IMG/VR virus record: IMGVR_UViG_2693429748_000016
DNA length: 10,141 nt
Strand: one strand, 5' to 3'
From: a virus
Taxonomy: Duplodnaviria > Heunggongvirae > Uroviricota > Caudoviricetes
Made by a program: the position numbers and the translations under genes. The notes below the pieces were generated by a model. The model was not told the DNA's origin and did no database searches. It saw only the letters and a program-made list of their open reading frames with translations. Positions 998 through 10,141 of the stretch are shown one piece after another (position 1 is the stretch's first letter; every line of letters begins with the position of its first letter).

Positions 998-1288
998 TTA
1001 ACTGTTTTTGCCTGGATACTGTCTTCGAGAATGCACAATATTTACTACTTCTATGCTTGATGCTGTTACTCGGTAAAGGATGATGTAGTTAGGATGAGTT
1101 ACAATTTCACGAAGACCAAGAACTCGCTCGCTTGGAGGATACAGGTAAGGATGCTCTGTGAGCGGCAAAACGGATGTTTCAATTCGAATTTTCATTCTGC
1201 GTGCTGCCGCGGGATTTTCTTTAGCTATGTAGGCTACGATCTGGCGCAAATCATCACGAGCAGATGGTAGCCATAAAACGGGTAACAT
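998..1288 (-). CDS. parE: ParE-family type II toxin (RelE/ParE superfamily), 96 aa
   Basis: Size and sequence are typical of ParE toxins (N-terminal MLPVLWLPSARDDL, C-terminal PNYIILYRV...VVNIVHSRRQYP). Start overlaps the stop of the upstream antitoxin gene (ATGA at 1288). From memory it resembles ParE2 of the E. coli paaR2-paaA2-parE2 module; not verified by alignment. Confidence 0.85.
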   Translation of the reverse strand: MLPVLWLPSARDDLRQIVAYIAKENPAAARRMKIRIETSVLPLTEHPYLYPPSERVLGLREIVTHPNYIILYRVTASSIEVVNIVHSRRQYPGKNS

Positions 1289-1482
1289 TATTCACCTCTG
1301 TGAGTTGCAGCAGCAATTTGGGCAATAATTTGTTCCATTTCCGCCATTACCTCATCATGCGGAATCGCCGGGCGGGGATCCGCGAGGCTTGCTGCTACTT
1401 TGGCCCGCAGCCATTCGTTGTAACTATTTTCTTGCTCAACTGTCTCAAATTCTGAAACCATTGGGGAAAGGACTGTACTCAT
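1288..1482 (-). CDS. paaA: small antitoxin, PaaA-like (64 aa), partner of ParE
   Basis: 64-aa acidic protein immediately upstream of and overlapping parE. GGAG lies 10 nt upstream of the ATG at 1482. Motif SPMVSEFETVEQENSYNEWLRAKVAASLADPRPAIPHDEV matches my recollection of PaaA2-type antitoxins. Gene context (regulator-antitoxin-ParE) supports the call. Confidence 0.75.
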   Translation of the reverse strand: MSTVLSPMVSEFETVEQENSYNEWLRAKVAASLADPRPAIPHDEVMAEMEQIIAQIAAATHRGE

Positions 1483-1501
1483 TTTACATATCTCCTCTGA
1501 T

Positions 1502-2002
1502 TTAGGCGCGACGGCCTTTTTGTGCAGCTAACCACCGCGCAACCGTACGATCCATTGATTCTTTTTTATCTTTCATCTCCTGAAGCATGTGTTCTTGATC
1601 TTCTTTCGGAAAAGCTCTGAACGTATGGATTAAATCTCGTTCCATCGGCTCTACGGCAAACGGTAGTTCATCCTCTGTTTGTTCTGTGTCTGCTGGTAAT
1701 GCGACTATGTTATCTTGCTGTGGTTCTCGACAATACATCCTTGCAATTTGCAGCAAATCTACCATGTCTGGCCTGATTGACTCAGGGGGAACTTTCAGTA
1801 AGCCAGCAAACTTTAGAACAGCCTCAAGGTTTAGTGGGGTTTGACCATTTAGGTAGTGACTTACCGCCCCTTGTGTTGAAAACCCCATAATTTCCGCCGC
1901 ACGTTCCTGAGTCAATCCCAACTGAGATTTCTTTGCCATCCAGATTTCTTTCAGTCTTCTGGCGGCGTTGAGGTCGGTGTCTGACAATGATTTTCTTTTC
2001 AT
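1502..2002 (-). CDS. CI-like HTH (XRE-family) repressor, PaaR-like; likely prophage immunity repressor
   Basis: ORF track 1502..2032 begins at a GTG; the first ATG (MKRKSLSDTDL..., at 2002) is the more plausible start. N-terminal HTH segment LTQERAAEIMGFSTQGAVSHYLNG. Transcribed divergently from the Cro-like gene across an operator-bearing intergenic region. First gene of the repressor-paaA-parE operon. No Ser/Lys S24 peptidase motif recognised in the C-terminal half. Confidence 0.75.
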   Translation of the reverse strand: MKRKSLSDTDLNAARRLKEIWMAKKSQLGLTQERAAEIMGFSTQGAVSHYLNGQTPLNLEAVLKFAGLLKVPPESIRPDMVDLLQIARMYCREPQQDNIVALPADTEQTEDELPFAVEPMERDLIHTFRAFPKEDQEHMLQEMKDKKESMDRTVARWLAAQKGRRA

Positions 2003-2037
2003 ACATCCAATTCTAATAAGATTGCTAATCACTTTGA

Positions 2038-2799: not shown

Positions 2800-2870
2800 C
2801 TGACAATAGCCATATCGAATCGCTCCCGGCAACTCGTGAGTAAAAAGATTCGGTATCAGAAGAGGTGAGT

Positions 2871-3935
2871 ATGGCTAACGCCTGGCTCAGATTATGGCAT
2901 GACATGCCAAATGACCCTAAGTGGCGAACAATTGCCAGGGTGTCAGGGCAGCCAATTGCAACAGTGATGGCAGTGTATATCCACCTCCTGGTGAGCGCGT
3001 CACGAAATGTCACGCGAGGTCACATTGATGTCACGACAGAAGATTTGGCAAGTGCGCTCGACGTGACAGAAGAGGTAATTGATTCAATTTTGCAGACGAT
3101 GCAGGGGCGGGTACTTGATGGTGATTTAATCACTGGATGGGAAAAACGCCAGGTGCTTAAAGAGGACAACGGCAATATTTCGCAAACCGCAAAATCTCCT
3201 GCAGAGCGCAAGAGGGCGCAGCGAGAGAGGGAAAGAAAGCGGGAACAAAATGGCGATTGTCACGGCGCGTCACGAAATGTCACGCACATGTCACGACGAG
3301 TCACGACAGATACAGATAAAGATACAGATAAAGAAGATCAAAACACTATGGTCCATGGCGTAAAAAACGCCACGAACCAGGCAGGGGATGTTCAGACCGT
3401 CAATCCTGGTCAGCCAGCAGGCTCGACACCGGAAGCCGATTCAGCGTATGCGCTGAAAGCCGATTCGGGCGCTGTGCAGCAGGTGATGACCGCAAGGCCG
3501 GAGCAATCACTCCAACTGCAGCAGCCTGAAGCCGATTCCGCCATTCAGCGGGAAGCCGATCGGGTAGCCCCGGAAAACACCGGGCAGCCTGTGGGACGAG
3601 TGGATTATCCGGATGTGTTCGAACAGGTCTGGCGGGAATACCCGTTGCGTGCCGGGGCAAACCCGAAGAAATCCGCATTCAGTGCCTGGAAGGCCAGATT
3701 GCGCGAGGGGGTGCCACCAGAGACCATGCTGGATGGTGTGAGGCGTTACGCGAGATACCTGGCGGCGACCGGGAAAGCGGGAACGGAATTTGTTCAGCGA
3801 GCGACGACGTTTTTTGGGCCGGACCGGAATTTTGAAAACCCCTGGTTGCTCCCGGTAAGCGGCACGAACAACCAGCGTTGTGTGAATCATATTTCTGAAC
3901 CGGATACCGAAATTCCGCCGGGATTCAGGGGGTGA
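2871..3935 (+). CDS. phage replication initiator / replisome organiser (O-like, YdaU-like), about 354 aa
   Basis: ATG at 2871 with GAGG 5 nt upstream (ORF track begins at GTG 2865). C-terminal region (YPDVFEQVWREYPLRAGANPKKSAFSAWKARL...FENPW) resembles the conserved C-terminal domain of phage replication proteins. Lies immediately upstream of a DnaC-like loader. Carries internal iteron arrays. Confidence 0.85.
   Translation: MANAWLRLWHDMPNDPKWRTIARVSGQPIATVMAVYIHLLVSASRNVTRGHIDVTTEDLASALDVTEEVIDSILQTMQGRVLDGDLITGWEKRQVLKEDNGNISQTAKSPAERKRAQRERERKREQNGDCHGASRNVTHMSRRVTTDTDKDTDKEDQNTMVHGVKNATNQAGDVQTVNPGQPAGSTPEADSAYALKADSGAVQQVMTARPEQSLQLQQPEADSAIQREADRVAPENTGQPVGRVDYPDVFEQVWREYPLRAGANPKKSAFSAWKARLREGVPPETMLDGVRRYARYLAATGKAGTEFVQRATTFFGPDRNFENPWLLPVSGTNNQRCVNHISEPDTEIPPGFRG
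2995..3040. repeat. iteron block 1 (putative origin element) inside the replication gene
   Basis: TCACG copies at 3000, 3010 and 3031 (roughly 10-11 bp phasing). The 21-mer GCGCGTCACGAAATGTCACGC (2995-3015) recurs exactly at 3265-3285. Confidence 0.55.
3259..3334. repeat. iteron block 2 plus tandem 12-mer (putative origin core) inside the replication gene
   Basis: TCACG copies at 3260, 3270, 3280, 3291 and 3301 (spacing 10, 10, 11, 10 bp), followed by TACAGATAAAGA x2 (3311-3334) and an A-rich stretch. Resembles the lambda arrangement of an origin embedded in the O gene. Confidence 0.55.
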
Positions 3936-3941
3936 TGTGGC

Positions 3942-4688
3942 ATGAAAAACATTGCGGCAGCCGGGGTTCTTGAACGTATTCACAGACTTGCACCACAGGG
4001 GGCGGTTCCACCGTACCGGACGGTGGAGGAGTGGCGGGAATGGCAACTTGCTGAAGGACGAAAACGCAGCGAGGAGATTAACCGCCAGAATCGCCAGTTG
4101 CGGGTGGAAAAAATCCTGAATCGTTCGGGCATCCAGCCTCTGCACAGCAAATGCTCGTTTGCGAATTATCAGGTGCAGAACGACGGGCAAAAATACGCGC
4201 TGAGCCAGGCCAAATCCATAGCTGACGAACTGATGACCGGGTGCACGAATTTTGTGTTCAGCGGTAAAACCGGCACCGGGAAAAATCACCTTGCAGCGGC
4301 GATGGGTAACCGGCTGATGGCGAAGGGGCGCAGCGTGATTATCGTCACCGAGTCTGATGTCATGAGCGTGTTGCATGACAGCTACGACAACGGCAAATCC
4401 GGTGAAAAATTTTTACAGGAGCTTTGCGGGGTTGATTTGCTGGTCCTGGATGAAATAGGCATTCAGCGGGAGACGAAAAACGAGCAGGTGGTATTGCACC
4501 AGATAATTGATCGCCGGACAGCATCACTGTGCAGTGTCGGGATGTTAACAAACCTGAATCATGCCGCAATGAGCACGCTTCTTGGTGAGAGGATTATGGA
4601 CCGCATGACCATGAACGGTTGTCGGTGGGTGACGTTTAACTGGGATAGCTGGCGTTCAAATGTCAGCTTTCCGGGAGTTGTGAAGTAA
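3942..4688 (+). CDS. DnaC-like replicative helicase loader (AAA+ ATPase), 248 aa
   Basis: Walker A GKTGTGKNHLAAAMG, Walker B LLVLDEIG, and C-terminal LLGERIMDRM...WVTFNWDSWR closely paralleling E. coli DnaC. Starts 7 nt after the replication gene stop. Confidence 0.92.
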   Translation: MKNIAAAGVLERIHRLAPQGAVPPYRTVEEWREWQLAEGRKRSEEINRQNRQLRVEKILNRSGIQPLHSKCSFANYQVQNDGQKYALSQAKSIADELMTGCTNFVFSGKTGTGKNHLAAAMGNRLMAKGRSVIIVTESDVMSVLHDSYDNGKSGEKFLQELCGVDLLVLDEIGIQRETKNEQVVLHQIIDRRTASLCSVGMLTNLNHAAMSTLLGERIMDRMTMNGCRWVTFNWDSWRSNVSFPGVVK

Positions 4689-4706
4689 TTTTTGTTGGAG
4701 GATGTT

Positions 4707-5435
4707 TTAATGGAAACTGTATTTGACGCACTGAAAGCACTGAAAAGAGCCTCTTCACATGTGGTGGCGTCCCGCCTTGGAATCAGCCGTGAAGATGCGG
4801 TCAACGAACTGTGGAAACTGAAGCGCCGTGGTGAAGCGGATAACAAGGGTTCGATGTGGTGGCTGATTCAGGCTGGTGAAAGTGAACCAGTGTCACCGGT
4901 ACCGAAAGTGACAGCGCAAATGCTGACTGAGGCGATTGAACAACATGGCCCACAAACGGCGGATGAGCTGGCACTGATGTTCGGGATTACCTCCCGCCGG
5001 GCGAATTCATCGCTGGCCATGGCAATCAGCAAAGGGCGTCTGATTCGCGTGAATCAGGGCGGTAAATTTCGGTACTGCATACCGGGCGCTGATTTACCGG
5101 CAGAGCCGAAAGCCGCATCCATAGCGGAAACGGATGGTAAAGTCTTTCCTCAGCCAGCAGGTGTTGCGTTACCGGTACAGGAAGCTGCAACACAGGAAGA
5201 AATTAAAACAGAAACTGTGGCGGACATTGTGCAGTCGTTGCCATCGTTCACCGAAACGCAAGCGGATGACCTGGTTTTACCATCGCTGCATATGGCAAAC
5301 CGCGAACTGCGTCGGGCGAAAAGTCATGTCCAGAAGTGGGAGCGTGTCTGCGCCGCGTTGCGGGAGCTGAACAAGCACCGGGATATTGTTCGACAGATTG
5401 TCGATTCCTCCGGTCGTATTGTGTCGGAAAAGTGA
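4707..5435 (+). CDS. hypothetical phage protein (about 243 aa)
   Basis: ORF track 4692..5435 begins at a TTG; the ATG at 4707 has GGAGGA 6 nt upstream. Follows the DnaC-like gene in the same operon. No catalytic motif recognised. Confidence 0.6.
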
Positions 5436-5450
5436 TTGCCGGGGGCGCTT

Positions 5451-5816
5451 ATGGCAAAAGTATTTACACAGGAAGAGCGGGAAAAAATTAAGGGGCAGGT
5501 TGTTGAACTCGTACGCCAGAGTGGGCGCGAGACGTTACGACAACTGGAAGCTAAAACCGGGGCGACAAGATATTTAATAAGCGTTCTCGCCAGAGAGCTG
5601 GTTGCCAGTGGGGATGTATACAACTCTGGCTACGGGTTATTCCCGTCTGAACAGGCTCGTAAGGACTGGCAAAACGCCCGCAAAAAACTCTCGAGGGCAA
5701 AGCTGAAGAAACCATCTGTGGTTGATCCGGACCTTATCTGGTCATTACCAGACGGAGAAATACGCCGCTACGAAGTACCGGCTTTCTATCAGGGTGATTT
5801 TCAGGAACCGTTCTGA
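5451..5816 (+). CDS. hypothetical phage protein (about 121 aa); 3' end fused to an IS-derived segment
   Basis: ATG at 5451 (ORF track begins at TTG 5436). A diverged second copy of most of this gene lies at 5930-6319. The last codons (..QEPF stop) fall within the sequence attributed to the IS remnant. Confidence 0.55.
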   Translation: MAKVFTQEEREKIKGQVVELVRQSGRETLRQLEAKTGATRYLISVLARELVASGDVYNSGYGLFPSEQARKDWQNARKKLSRAKLKKPSVVDPDLIWSLPDGEIRRYEVPAFYQGDFQEPF

Positions 5817-5929
5817 CAGCTTCGGCTTTGAACTCTTTAGAGTAACGTTGGGTTTTTCTGCTCATTATTAGCTCCTTCTGATGCCATTCTATTTCAGGAA
5901 GGAGTGTCCGTTAAACTCAGGCTACCTCA
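5806..5929 (-). mobile_element. remnant of an IS3-family insertion sequence (left end plus first ~20 codons of orfA), IS600-like
   Basis: The minus strand reads TGAGGTAGCC... from 5929 (typical IS3-family terminus), then AAGGAGCTAATA-ATG and MSRKTQRYSKEFKAEAVRTV (ATG at 5865). I recall this as the IS600-type OrfA N-terminus; unverified. The element breaks off after about 20 codons. Confidence 0.5.
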
Positions 5930-6319
5930 AAAATTAAAGGGCAGGTTGTTGAACTTGTACGTCTGAGCGGTCGCGAGACGTTGCGGCAACTGGAAGCCAA
6001 GACAGGTGCGACAAGATATCTGATGAGTGTTCTCGCCAGAGAGCTGGTTGCCAGTGGCGATGTATACAACTCTGGTTACGGGTTATTCCCGTCTGAACAG
6101 GCGCGTAAGGACTGGCAAAACGCCCGCAAAAAACTCTCAAGGGCAAATCTGAAGAAACCATCTGTGGTTGATCCTGACCTTATCTGGTCATTACCAGACG
6201 GAGAAATACGCCGCTACGACAGGCGTCAAAACATAATCTGTAGCGAGTGCCGGAAGAGTGAAGTTATGCAGCGTGTACCGGCTTTCTATCAGGGTGATTT
6301 TCAGGAGGCGGTACTGTGA
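5930..6319 (+). pseudogene. N-terminally truncated, diverged second copy of the 5451..5816 gene
   Basis: 5930-6230 aligns with 5483-5790 at roughly 93% identity by eye. Homology begins exactly at the IS terminus, so the copy lacks about the first 10 codons and its start. ORF track 5981..6319 starts at an internal ATG. Carries an extra 56-bp segment near the 3' end relative to copy A. Confidence 0.5.
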
Positions 6320-6440
6320 GTGAAATTAGCTATCAAATAATCTGTCGCGAGTGCCGGAAGAGCGAAGCTATGCAGCGTGTACTGGCTTTCTATCAGGGTA
6401 ATTTTCAGGAGGCGATACTGTGAATGAAATTAGCTATCAG
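6233..6440. repeat. 104-bp tandem direct repeat (2 units, about 92% identical)
   Basis: Unit 1 is 6233-6336 and unit 2 is 6337-6440, with 8 mismatches out of 104. Each unit contains the gene 3' end (..CxECRKSExMQRVxAFYQGxFQEAxL), a TGA stop, and an abutting start codon (GTG in unit 1, ATG in unit 2). Confidence 0.75.
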
Positions 6441-6837
6441 GCTTCAATTACCGCTGGCATTCGCATCAAAGGAGAGGAGCATGGAAATAAAACCAGAAGA
6501 TGAGTTAAGCAATATTGTTTTATTTCCGGTAAAAGAGGATAACCCTCGTAATCAGGTTAATTTTCTTTATGAGCCATCGGAAAGACCATATTGCCATCAC
6601 GCTTCTGTCCGGGTTGACGAAAAAGAGCGTCAGGTCCGCTGTAAAATTTGCGGTGCAGTTGTGGAGCCATTTGACTGGATGCTCTCTGTGGCGAAAAGAG
6701 AAACCAGACTGGCAGATGATGTAAGGCTCTTGCGCCAGGAGGAGCGGGAAAGGCGAAAAAATATAGAAAAGCTAATCCAGATTGAGCGTAATGCGAAAGC
6801 GCGGATACGCAGGGTGACAAAATATAGCCCCGAATAA
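6424..6837 (+). CDS. hypothetical protein with Cys/His cluster (zinc-ribbon-like) and basic coiled-coil tail
   Basis: ORF track 6424..6837. ATG 6424 directly abuts the TGA of the preceding repeat unit (TGAATG); the alternative ATG at 6481 has AGGAG 6 nt upstream. Contains CHH...CKIC and a C-terminal charged, heptad-like segment. Confidence 0.55.
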   Translation: MKLAIRLQLPLAFASKERSMEIKPEDELSNIVLFPVKEDNPRNQVNFLYEPSERPYCHHASVRVDEKERQVRCKICGAVVEPFDWMLSVAKRETRLADDVRLLRQEERERRKNIEKLIQIERNAKARIRRVTKYSPE

Positions 6838-7051
6838 TCAAGGTTATTTCTGGAAGTCAAGTCGTGAGTGATGAGGACTAACAAATACGGTGAACTCGAT
6901 AAAGAGATTCAGGACGAACTGGAGGCCAGGAATGATTGACAAATCACCAAGTGAGTTCAGCTACAAAGATTTATTGTCATAACGGGTTATGAGATCGACT
7001 TGGTGCGTGATATTCTTCGGGCCAGTTTGCTATGCGCCACCATGAGATGTT

Positions 7052-8884
7052 ATGGCCCGCATGTTTGATACATTAGGATTTTACATTATGAATGTGCAAC
7101 ATTTTGATTTTTTTACAGATAATGAGTTTTCTAATCTGGAAAGATATCAAACTTGTAAAGCCATGGCCAAAGGTTATGCGGGCAATTACAAAACCGGGCA
7201 GTCAAGGTTGATGCATGCCCGCTCATACTGCTTCAGCATCGTAGCTGCATATTGGGATACCCTTGCAAAAAAGCAAAAAAGCAGCATTAAAATGAGGGCA
7301 GTACCGCACACTGTTTACATAGAAGACATTCCATGTGATGCACGCGAGCTCGCTGAACGAACAGGTGAGCTTATTGCTCAATTTCCGGCGGAGGACGCTG
7401 GATATCTGATTGGGTCAATTTATACGGTAATGCTGCCATCCGCTTACCGTTCGGAATTGGGGGCTTACTATACCCCCCCACCTTTGGTAGCGCGTCTCTT
7501 GGACCTGGCTGAAAAGTCTGGTGTTGATTTTTCTCATGCATCGGTTATTGATCCTGCGTGTGGTGGCGGTGCATTTTTGGCACCAGTAGCCATTCGAATG
7601 TTAAAAAAAGACAAGGGGTCTTCCCCTGAATGGATGTTGAGGAGAATCAGTCGTCGTTTAAAGGGGATAGAAATCGATCCATTTGCGGCTTGGATGAGTT
7701 TGGTATTGCTCGAATCTGTACTAATGCCACTATGTGTAAAGGTAAAACGTAGATTGCCTGAAGATACAATTATTGTTGCTGATGCGCTTCAGCAAGATAA
7801 ATTTTCTGGTTATGATCTTGTGGTAGGGAATCCGCCTTACGGACGTGTCACTCTCGATATTAAAACGAGAGAAAAATATTCTCGTTCGTTATTTGGTCAT
7901 GCAAATCTATATGGATTGTTCACCGACTTAGCTGTTCGCATGGTTAAAGAGAAAACAGGAGTTATTGCATTTCTTACGCCAACTTCTTTTCTTGGTGGGC
8001 AGTATTTCACCGCGCTGCGAACCCTTTTGACCGAAAAAACTACTCCGTATGCCCTTGATTTCGTCACTGACAGGGATGGGGTCTTTGACGATGTTCTCCA
8101 GGAAACAATGTTGACAGCATTCAAGGCGGGAGAACATAAAGTTCGGGCCCAGGTATCCTCACTTGTCCCTAAGGGGTTGAACAAAGCAAAAATTGAGAAA
8201 ATAGGTAATGTTGATATAGAAAAAGGTGGAGCAACGTGGCTTTTGCCACGCGTTAAAGATGATGCCTGTTTTCTTAATGTATTAAAACAGATGTCTACGC
8301 GTTTAGCTGATCTGGGATACTCAGTCTCTACAGGTCAGTTAGTCTGGAATCGATTTAAGTCGCAGTTGCGTACGACGAAAGGAAAAAATAGCTACCCATT
8401 AGTCTGGGCGGAATCAATAACTTCAGCTGGTTTTCGTTTTAGTGCAGACAGAAAAAATCATGTTCCCTATATCGATATAACCCCACAACAGGGTTTCCTT
8501 GTGACAAAATCTGAATGTGTGCTTGTTCAGCGGACAACATCGAAGGAACAGGACAGAAGGATTTTAGCGGCAATTTTACCTCAGGGATTTATAGATGAAA
8601 CTGGTGGCGTAGTAGTTGAAAACCATATTAATATTGTATATTCAAACGGATTGTTCTCTGCGGTTCGCCCTGATGTTATTGATATGCTACTTAATTCGCA
8701 TGTTGTCGATCGGGCGTTCAGGTGTATAAGCGGAAGTGTTGCTGTTTCGGCCTATGAATTGAATTCAATCCCGTTGCCTTCTCTGGAGCAGGTGATGGAG
8801 ATTCAATCGTTAATTGATGCTGGCGTCCACAGACGGATTATTGAGAGAACTATCGCTGGTTTCTATGGAGTGATGATTGCATGA
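7052..8884 (+). CDS. gamma-class N6-adenine DNA methyltransferase (Eco57I/TaqI-like), 610 aa
   Basis: Motifs in gamma-class order: YYTPPPLV (about 7466-7489), SAM-binding VIDPACGGGAFL (about 7544-7579), catalytic VVGNPPYG (about 7819-7842), with a long C-terminal region consistent with a target-recognition domain. Alternative starts at 7061 and 7088. Visibly lower GC than the phage replication genes. Confidence 0.88.
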   Translation: MARMFDTLGFYIMNVQHFDFFTDNEFSNLERYQTCKAMAKGYAGNYKTGQSRLMHARSYCFSIVAAYWDTLAKKQKSSIKMRAVPHTVYIEDIPCDARELAERTGELIAQFPAEDAGYLIGSIYTVMLPSAYRSELGAYYTPPPLVARLLDLAEKSGVDFSHASVIDPACGGGAFLAPVAIRMLKKDKGSSPEWMLRRISRRLKGIEIDPFAAWMSLVLLESVLMPLCVKVKRRLPEDTIIVADALQQDKFSGYDLVVGNPPYGRVTLDIKTREKYSRSLFGHANLYGLFTDLAVRMVKEKTGVIAFLTPTSFLGGQYFTALRTLLTEKTTPYALDFVTDRDGVFDDVLQETMLTAFKAGEHKVRAQVSSLVPKGLNKAKIEKIGNVDIEKGGATWLLPRVKDDACFLNVLKQMSTRLADLGYSVSTGQLVWNRFKSQLRTTKGKNSYPLVWAESITSAGFRFSADRKNHVPYIDITPQQGFLVTKSECVLVQRTTSKEQDRRILAAILPQGFIDETGGVVVENHINIVYSNGLFSAVRPDVIDMLLNSHVVDRAFRCISGSVAVSAYELNSIPLPSLEQVMEIQSLIDAGVHRRIIERTIAGFYGVMIA

Positions 8885-9963
8885 ATCTGCCTGTTGTTCC
8901 CCCATTGAATGTTATCCGGGAAAGATTACAATTAATTTTCCCTGAAGGGACTGAGAATCGTGGATATTTAATTCGGGAAATAGCTGCAAAAACAATTTTT
9001 GTCATGTTTTATGCTGGTGCGGTTGAGGGGCTGGGGCGATGGATAAGGCCCAGCCAGGTTGTAAGTATGGGAGATTCGCAGGCTGCTCTTACTGATGATG
9101 CGTCCAGAGAAAGCTGGGTAAAGATGACTTTCTCTAAACAAAAGATAAGGCCTGCTGATGCATGGTATGCGGAAAATACGCGTGAGCCAATACGTGATGA
9201 AACTATAAAAAATGGCCTAATACCTTGCAATGCAATTGTTGAGCGTAAAGGTATACCCACCACATCCTCTCGTCCTCGTTACAGTTTGAATCGCTCTTTT
9301 GCAGCACTCTTTGATGCCGGGCTTGAAGGAGATTCGCTGCTGAGTGCAATAAGTTCCTGGCAAGAAAATCATTTGAACAAAGCCGCTCTTGCTAGGTTGC
9401 GTTTATTGAAATCAGGGGCAGTGATTGCTGCTGATGCCGTAGTCGTCACTTTCCCAAATGGAGAGAAGAGAACTTTAGCTCCGGGCCCGTCAAGTACAAT
9501 AGCTAAGGCCGTCATCGAAGTTTTTGCTCCTAATTTTCTTAAGAATCCAACTGTGCTCTGGTTGTCTGAATCCGGGAATAAAGTTGTTGCTCAGGATGAT
9601 GTATTGGCAAAAGCATTGGGGCTGAATATTGATGCCTCAAAAGCACTTCCAGATATTATTTTGATTGATTTGGGAGAGGACCGAACGGGTTCGGACATGC
9701 TTGTAGTTTTCACTGAAGTAGTTGCGACAGATGGGCCTATAAACAGGGAACGAAAAGTTACTCTCACTCATTTGGCTATTGACGCTGGGTTCAGCGAGAA
9801 AAATCTTGCATTCCTTACGGCATTTATGGACAGAAGTGCTCTGCCTTTTAAAAAGGCAATACCAGAATTGGCGTGGGGATCTTATGCATGGTTTGCTTCT
9901 GAACCGGAGCACTTAATTGATCTTCGGGATGGTTATCCGGTAAAGATCAGCCAGAGAAAATGA
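8881..9963 (+). CDS. putative type II restriction endonuclease (possibly BsuBI/PstI family), 360 aa
   Basis: Start overlaps the methyltransferase stop (ATGA at 8881-8884), with GGAG upstream. Same AT-rich composition. Size and M-then-R gene order match BsuBI-type systems as I remember them. No nuclease motif confidently identified by eye. Confidence 0.6.
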   Translation: MNLPVVPPLNVIRERLQLIFPEGTENRGYLIREIAAKTIFVMFYAGAVEGLGRWIRPSQVVSMGDSQAALTDDASRESWVKMTFSKQKIRPADAWYAENTREPIRDETIKNGLIPCNAIVERKGIPTTSSRPRYSLNRSFAALFDAGLEGDSLLSAISSWQENHLNKAALARLRLLKSGAVIAADAVVVTFPNGEKRTLAPGPSSTIAKAVIEVFAPNFLKNPTVLWLSESGNKVVAQDDVLAKALGLNIDASKALPDIILIDLGEDRTGSDMLVVFTEVVATDGPINRERKVTLTHLAIDAGFSEKNLAFLTAFMDRSALPFKKAIPELAWGSYAWFASEPEHLIDLRDGYPVKISQRK

Positions 9964-10003: not shown

Positions 10004-10138
10004 TTACGGTGCACTGGATAAAAAATCGGTTTCATAGATTTGCCCACCGTGGTATACGCCTGCGATAAAAACTTTATTGTCATCAACGGCAAAAGCAATA
10101 ATTGTTCTGTGGCGGGGTGATGCTGCCAACTTACTGAT
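10004..10138 (-). pseudogene. possible remnant of a RelE/ParE-like toxin gene (C-terminal fragment only)
   Basis: Minus-strand frame reads ..RTIIAFAVDDNKVFIAGVYHGGQIYE.. ending at TAA (10004-10006), a pattern reminiscent of RelE/ParE C-termini. The frame is closed by an in-frame TAA at 10139-10141 and has no ATG, so it is either a fragment, a frameshifted gene, or chance. Confidence 0.2.
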
Positions 10139-10141
10139 TTA

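Follow-up and report, generated by a model that had tools for sequence, protein, structure and literature searches.

An apparently intact type II restriction-modification operon of the BsuBI/PstI/SdaI family as probable accessory cargo of a lambda-like prophage

Introduction

PstI and BsuBI, which cut CTGCA^G, are the founders of the Pfam families PF06616 and PF17728, and their partner is a gamma-class N6-methyladenine (m6A) DNA methyltransferase. The related endonuclease SdaI recognises an 8-bp site, CCTGCAGG, which it cuts as CCTGCA^GG. In the SdaI subfamily the catalytic lysine is reported to have migrated (Orlowski and Bujnicki, PMC2441816). Members of the family are also found on mobile elements. 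EcoGIII is the BsuBI/PstI-type restriction-modification (R-M) system of the Stx2a prophages of Escherichia coli O104:H4 and O145:H28 RM13514; it has an active endonuclease and is a documented case of a prophage that adds CTGCAG methylation genome-wide (PMC3893438). Similar gene pairs were described on SGI1-related islands (PMC9035990), and a defence hotspot between gpA and the portal gene was defined in P2-like prophages (Rousset et al. 2022, PMC9122126). Against this background of documented PstI-family systems in E. coli prophages, we analysed a methyltransferase gene (M) and an endonuclease gene (R) lying next to each other in a 10,141-nucleotide (nt) stretch of Caudoviricetes DNA (IMG/VR record IMGVR_UViG_2693429748_000016), hereafter the window. 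We conclude that M and R very probably form an orthodox type II R-M operon, self-contained and apparently intact, that belongs to the BsuBI/PstI/SdaI family and is accessory cargo of a lambda-like (Rac/lambdoid) prophage, in a variable slot with the replication genes on one side and the DUF968, RusA and Q genes on the other.

Results

A first-pass annotation of the window had called the pair a type II R-M system, with the methyltransferase gene coupled through an ATGA overlap to the gene of a 360-amino-acid (aa) protein. Both points held. The start codon of R is read directly over the stop codon of M (Table 1), with GGAG at 8867-8870 as the ribosome-binding site for R, 10 bases 5' of its start, and Pfam, PADLOC and RefSeq concur on the type of system; for the 99.9%-identical copy in E. 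coli, RefSeq already has the correct annotation, a methyltransferase and a BsuBI/PstI family endonuclease. The two genes are separate, adjacent, apparently intact and on the same strand in one predicted transcription unit, as in an orthodox type II R-M operon, and both are full length against hundreds of homologues. The pairing of M and R was preserved at every homologous locus inspected. The 4-bp overlap was also found in loci L086, L089, L092 and L094 and in the EcoGIII-type pair of L005; the Klebsiella copy (L096) has no overlap, with one base between the two genes. No open reading frame (ORF) for a controller (C) protein or a regulatory helix-turn-helix (HTH) protein was found in 6838-7087.

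R is a member of the BsuBI/PstI/SdaI family. It matched both domains of the Pfam pair PF17728/PF06616, BsuBI_PstI_RE_N over residues 10-172 (E-value 1.2e-30; 106.6 bits against a cutoff of 27) and BsuBI_PstI_RE over residues 188-349 (9.3e-45), with a layout of an N-terminal winged-helix DNA-binding domain followed by a C-terminal PD-(D/E)XK-variant nuclease domain, and it also matched the PADLOC model REase_II (PDLC03589) with an E-value of 2.8e-128. The only sequence match of R in the Protein Data Bank (PDB) was SdaI (2ixs; phmmer, E 1.8e-16). The AlphaFold model of R, built from 31 relatives, was of moderate confidence (pLDDT 69.4), and Foldseek returned 2ixs_A as its only PDB match at E <= 0.001 (7.9e-14, probability 1.00). 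With both Pfam domains far over threshold and SdaI as the sole sequence match and the sole significant fold match in the PDB, the membership of the BsuBI/PstI family that had initially been guessed from size and gene order was established. The annotation had also named a lack of similarity to any restriction endonuclease as one part of the outcome that would speak against its call, and similarity was found in Pfam, in PADLOC and to SdaI. The structural comparison carries a caution of its own, since the model is moderate (pLDDT 69) and its global TM-score to SdaI is just 0.37-0.41.

To examine the catalytic residues we aligned R with 30 relatives and the EcoGIII-type enzyme of a Stx2a phage. 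P257, D258, E279, K234, G285 and P286 were invariant throughout, including in the biochemically active EcoGIII-type enzyme. R does not have the canonical lysine of PD-(D/E)XK ('EVVA' against 'EAVK' in SdaI). We considered that the missing lysine might mean an inactive nuclease, and rejected this idea because the active EcoGIII-type enzyme is also without it and because lysine migration is described for the SdaI subfamily (PMC2441816). Since the family residues are invariant and the absence of the lysine is shared with an active enzyme, R looks like an intact endonuclease. It is accordingly very improbable that R is dead or attenuated and that M serves as a de facto orphan epigenetic modifier. 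Decay of R does occur in prophage-borne systems of the family, as in phage ArgO145, whose BsuBI-like R gene is annotated as frameshifted, and other genes are frameshifted in the prophage of E. coli FDAARGOS_943 that carries a copy of the cassette; however, R is full length with all family-invariant residues intact, the E. coli copies are 99.3-99.9% identical and the coupled M-R architecture is kept.

M contains YYTPP at residue 139, DPACGGGAFL at residue 167 and NPPYG at residue 260 of its 610-aa ORF. The order X-I-IV of these motifs (YYTP, DPxCGxGxF, NPPY), followed by a C-terminal target-recognition domain, is that of the gamma class, and together with the Pfam matches to Eco57I (1.7e-13) and N6_Mtase (2.1e-09) it bears out the earlier description of M as a gamma-class N6-adenine methyltransferase. 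The PADLOC model MTase_II (PDLC03338) was matched over the full length of the protein (E 1.8e-300), and M.TaqI was the best PDB sequence match, across the NPPY region. Neither the N-terminal 120 aa nor the C-terminal 274 aa had a Pfam match; the latter can be aligned with the M.EcoGIII-type region. NCBIfam holds no model for R and gave only sub-threshold matches for M. Because nearly all the methyltransferase homologues have 598 aa and not 610, and because TAGGAT (7074-7079) and ATG 7088 are kept in six genomic contexts but ATG 7052 is not, the true start of M is most likely ATG 7088, which would give a protein of 598 aa.

Table 1. Coordinates of the R-M cassette and of other features in the window.
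Feature	Position	Strand	Remarks
Left junction of the variable slot	6849..6974	.	End of homology to cassette-free related prophages
Cassette-borne upstream leader	6975..7087	+	Extended -10-like element, palindrome, Shine-Dalgarno
Palindrome ATAACGGGTTAT	6979-6990		In the leader; perfect 5+5 (ATAAC-GG-GTTAT), ~20 nt 5' of the -10-like element
Promoter-like extended -10, TGaTATTCT	7008-7016	+	Sequence resemblance
Shine-Dalgarno TAGGAT	7074-7079	+	Invariant in six contexts
Gamma-class N6-adenine DNA methyltransferase gene (M)	7088..8884	+	598 aa, most likely start; longest ORF 7052-8884, 610 aa
ATGA overlap, R start codon over M stop codon	8881..8884	+	Direct sequence reading
Type II restriction endonuclease gene (R), BsuBI/PstI/SdaI family	8881..9963	+	360 aa
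RelE/ParE-family toxin gene, 3' end	10004..10138	-	Translation ends in IIAFAVDDNKVFIAGVYHGGQIYETDFLSSAP and a stop codon; L001 equivalent annotated as RelE/ParE toxin, then ParD antitoxin
HTH protein	1502-2032	-	176 aa
PaaA2-type antitoxin	1288-1482	-	Pfam PaaA2, 3e-23
ParE toxin	998-1288	-	1.8e-17

Next, we studied the genomic setting of the cassette. Among 5426 complete E. coli genomes, just 2 have it, at 99.3-99.9% identity. The FDAARGOS_943 copy (L001) lies in a lambdoid prophage integrated beside potC, where it is preceded by genes for a replisome organiser, a DnaC-like ATPase, DUF977 and a small hypothetical protein and followed by a ParDE pair, DUF968, RusA, the Q antiterminator, tRNAs and lysis genes. 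The genes of the window fit this layout, with an HTH repressor, a cro-like gene, YdaT, a replication initiator, an IstB/DnaC-like ATPase, DUF1627 and DUF977. The blastn homology to related prophages that do not have the cassette ends at 6822 (L002) and 6848 (L003), just past the stop codon of ORF 6424-6837, and these prophages hold DUF551, hokD and HTH+ImmA genes in the same slot before DUF968. The adjoining stretch 6849-6974 is common to the E. coli L001 copy and partly to that of Kluyvera, but not to that of Citrobacter sedlakii. The slot is thus bounded by conserved phage genes and occupied by unrelated genes in related phages, as expected of accessory cargo; the near-identical FDAARGOS_943 prophage and the other genes in the slot of its relatives agree with the early placement of the pair as prophage cargo in the early-to-late region.

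The base composition points in the same direction. The pair has a GC content of 43.6% (0.36-0.37 at third codon positions, GC3), compared with 53.6% (GC3 0.53-0.62) for the replication genes at 2865-5435, and the 43.6% stretch corresponds to the cassette, ~6975-9963; a similarly low value, 45.9%, was obtained for the left 2.9 kb of the window. The first-pass annotation had illustrated the contrast with two 60-nt lines, at 7081 (25.0% GC) and 3541 (66.7%). These values are exact, but no other 60-nt line of the window is lower than the first or higher than the second (mean of all lines 47.4%, standard deviation 7.5%), and the two exaggerate a regional difference that is real but smaller. The horizontal acquisition proposed from that contrast is supported by the lower GC and GC3 together with the presence of the same cassette in different prophage backbones and islands.

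Lambdoid prophages of Kluyvera huaxiensis, C. sedlakii and a third host have, in the same slot, copies whose proteins are 81-89% identical. The neighbours of the cassette differ among L086, L089 and L092, with DinI in some and RecA-like and LexA-like genes in others. In Serratia marcescens a 75% copy is flanked by gpA and the portal gene of a P2-like prophage; Klebsiella has a 72% copy on an island linked to an integrase, where it adjoins IS3 transposase and ScoMcrA-like HNH genes. Members with 47-68% identity are spread over Burkholderia, Sphingomonas, Erythrobacter, Caulobacter and others. The homology to the Kluyvera and Citrobacter copies ends at the stop codon of R and starts ~110 nt 5' of ATG 7088 (at ~6975 in C. 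sedlakii and ~6930 in Kluyvera), so that ~110 nt of upstream sequence travel with the M-R genes between unrelated mobile elements. A megablast search of 50,697 phage records gave no match to the cassette, and the closest endonuclease among these phage genomes has 27.9% identity. What is mildly new about the cassette includes its membership of a distinct, longer subfamily that is absent from sequenced phage collections and its recurrence as a ~3-kb unit in accessory slots of different temperate phages.

The upstream leader is ~100% identical in the window, Kluyvera and C. sedlakii copies from ~6975 on, despite different flanks. Moreover, ATTCTT (7012-7017), TAGGAT (7074-7079) and ATGA (7088-7091) are invariant in six contexts, among them the P2-like prophage and the Klebsiella island. 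Because a P2-like prophage and a non-phage island also have the conserved leader, and neither has a lambdoid early transcript, we infer that it may hold an autonomous weak promoter, from which the cassette would be expressed in the lysogen apart from the phage programme. Two results weigh against such a promoter: a strict sigma-70 consensus scan called none upstream of M, and the proposed -10 element fits only 4 of 6 positions, without a good -35. The lack of a called consensus promoter would suit an alternative in which the cassette is silent in the lysogen and expressed from the phage early-right transcript only after induction or infection. Instead of defending the lysogen, it would then benefit the phage, whose progeny DNA it would methylate while it cut the DNA of the host or of rivals. 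The position of the cassette, on the same strand as the cro/replication operon and downstream of it, also accords with lytic expression, and the Stx2a-phage system adjoins the repressor gene cI instead, where it would be well placed to be expressed in the lysogen. We nevertheless consider this alternative improbable, as the upstream element is conserved outside lambdoid phages and R-M cassettes of prophage hotspots are generally expressed in lysogens (PMC9122126), and we retain expression from the cassette's own leader as the preferred reading.

Two further features were observed in and next to the leader. The palindrome at 6979-6990 is kept in the Kluyvera copy, has one substitution in its left arm (ATATC) in C. 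sedlakii and L092, and is absent from the Serratia and Klebsiella copies; it may be a candidate operator, and no regulator gene is evident. A 16-codon ORF (MIDKSPSEFSYKDLLS and a stop codon) lies at 6932-6982 in the junction region, with a good GGAGG ribosome-binding site at 6921-6925. This ORF is partly conserved in the Kluyvera copy; it could be what is left of a displaced gene, or it could encode a leader peptide.

We then asked which sequence the system may recognise. The segment YAxN(T/S)RExxRxx(T/S) in the DNA-binding domain of R is among the best-conserved segments common with the EcoGIII-type R (CTGCAG) and SdaI (CCTGCAGG), and M can be aligned with M.EcoGIII-type through its entire C-terminal target-recognition region. 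Because of this shared segment and this alignment a CTGCAG-like target is favoured: CTGCAG, or a similar sequence with TGCA in it, is the probable site, and we lean, with modest confidence, towards CTGCAG itself or a site that contains it. Other results pull away from this assignment. R and M have only ~26% identity to any enzyme of proven specificity, so that the target may differ from CTGCAG. The 1.3 Mb of DNA that flanks 80 homologues showed no avoidance of CTGCAG (ratio 0.91, rank 42 of 64 palindromes) and a general depletion of CTCGAG and other palindromes; this test had no matched control and is weak and uninformative.

A functional R-M system of the PstI family with a recognition sequence other than CTGCAG, be it another TGCA-centred palindrome or an unrelated site particular to the 598/360-aa proteins, is therefore a serious contender, at somewhat under an even chance. 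Besides the 26% identity of each protein to the proven CTGCAG pair and the lack of CTGCAG depletion in the weak test above, R is ~40 aa and M ~110 aa longer than PstI-type proteins, and PADLOC models the subfamily apart from its 317-aa and 324-aa REase models. Literature searches found no paper with a motif for the 598/360-aa subfamily, and a search by RefSeq protein accession was also blank; the matches obtained were limited to PstI-sized or fused systems, namely Psa1 M.Psy9853I (pair of 2.4 kb), YenI and EcoGIII. YenI is a fusion system. On the other hand, SdaI and the PstI-type enzymes are about as distant from each other and yet have the same CTGCAG core, the putative recognition segment is among the best-conserved stretches across all three groups, and the target-recognition region of M aligns over its full length with M.EcoGIII-type. 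This alternative touches the specificity claim only, and a CTGCAG-like target remains the one we favour.

Finally, we examined the other features of the window. The toxin gene whose 3' end lies 3' of R is neighbouring cargo of the slot, outside the R-M cassette, so that two addiction-type modules, the R-M system and a RelE/ParE-family toxin, adjoin in it. The identity to the FDAARGOS_943 copy of this toxin stops at 10115 and an in-frame stop codon is found at 10139-10141; the toxin at 10004-10141 may be a different allele or truncated. Upstream of the slot, a 291-nt direct repeat (92% identical; 5483-5773 and 5929-6219) duplicates most of the DUF977 gene (Ren-like, phrog_142) and yields ORFs 5436-5816 and 5981-6319. 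It is followed by a head-to-tail 103-nt repeat (93% identical; 6233-6335 and 6337-6439), whose joint at 6336/6337 is the start of a 99.7%-identical block common with the FDAARGOS_943 prophage and has the look of a scar left where two prophage lineages recombined. At the left of the window a three-gene operon (998-2032, minus strand; Table 1) lies beside the divergent cro-like gene. We take it to resemble the paaR-paaA-parE three-component toxin-antitoxin systems of E. coli O157 prophages, and its HTH protein may also be the prophage repressor.

Discussion

The activity of the cassette, that is, its expression, methylation and cleavage, is predicted from its sequence. In the mechanism that we propose, the cassette would be transcribed from its own weak extended -10 promoter and thus expressed in the lysogen, with additional read-through from the phage early-right promoter after induction. 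M would be made first and R translated by coupling to M, which would keep R from outpacing it. M would then methylate a short palindrome at its adenine in either strand, and R would bind through its winged helix and cut unmethylated sites in incoming DNA, so that the lysogen would restrict the DNA of phages and plasmids that enter it. If the prophage were lost, sites would be left unmodified and exposed, and post-segregational killing could follow. Protection from superinfection and addiction, both suggested in the first-pass annotation, are thus roles that can reasonably be expected from general knowledge of type II R-M systems.

A prophage with a restriction system alters the phages and plasmids that its host accepts and rewrites the host methylome, and with the cassette E. 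coli prophages have a second PstI-family system, distantly related to EcoGIII. Strains that carry it may withstand transformation or phage therapy. If its specificity proved to be new, it would be an additional enzyme for the toolbox; otherwise this is a routine annotation. We put forward only tentatively, as a rather doubtful proposal, that the 598/360-aa proteins form a branch of the PstI family with an uncharacterised recognition sequence, specialised for prophage defence hotspots and equipped with its own conserved promoter/leader, that moves as a ~3-kb unit among lambdoid prophages, P2-like prophages and islands across Enterobacteriaceae.

With regard to the places that such cassettes occupy, the gpA-portal hotspot of P2 (PMC9122126) holds the 75%-identical copy of S. 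marcescens. The lambdoid slot, after DUF977/ead and before DUF968/RusA/Q, likewise has varied cargo in related phages (hokD, DUF551, HTH+ImmA, ParDE, DinI, RecA-like); we did not find it described as a defence hotspot in the literature consulted.

With regard to the proteins, R matches both of the Pfam domains founded on PstI and BsuBI, and M is of the same gamma class as their m6A partner. The cassette is nevertheless a separate subfamily, represented in PADLOC by PDLC03589/PDLC03338 as opposed to PDLC03420/PDLC03227, and PHROGs likewise keeps M and R of the window apart from the PstI-sized families. R resembles SdaI in its two-domain layout of a winged helix and a PD-(D/E)XK-variant nuclease and in the relocated catalytic lysine (PMC2441816), but the two have only ~21% identity over the structural alignment and the N-terminal region of R is longer.

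The closest counterpart by setting is EcoGIII, and our first idea was that the cassette is EcoGIII itself. We rejected it on the absence of a megablast match among the phage records and on the protein identity to the EcoGIII-type pair that we extracted from a Stx2a phage for comparison. Like the cassette, EcoGIII is a prophage-borne two-gene E. coli system of the same protein families, with M before R, a 4-bp overlap and m6A as the modification. It differs in sequence, with just 26% identity to the cassette for R and likewise for M, in the size of its proteins (489/317 aa compared with 598/360 aa), and in its location, which is directly downstream of cI in the immunity region, whereas the cassette lies after the replication genes.

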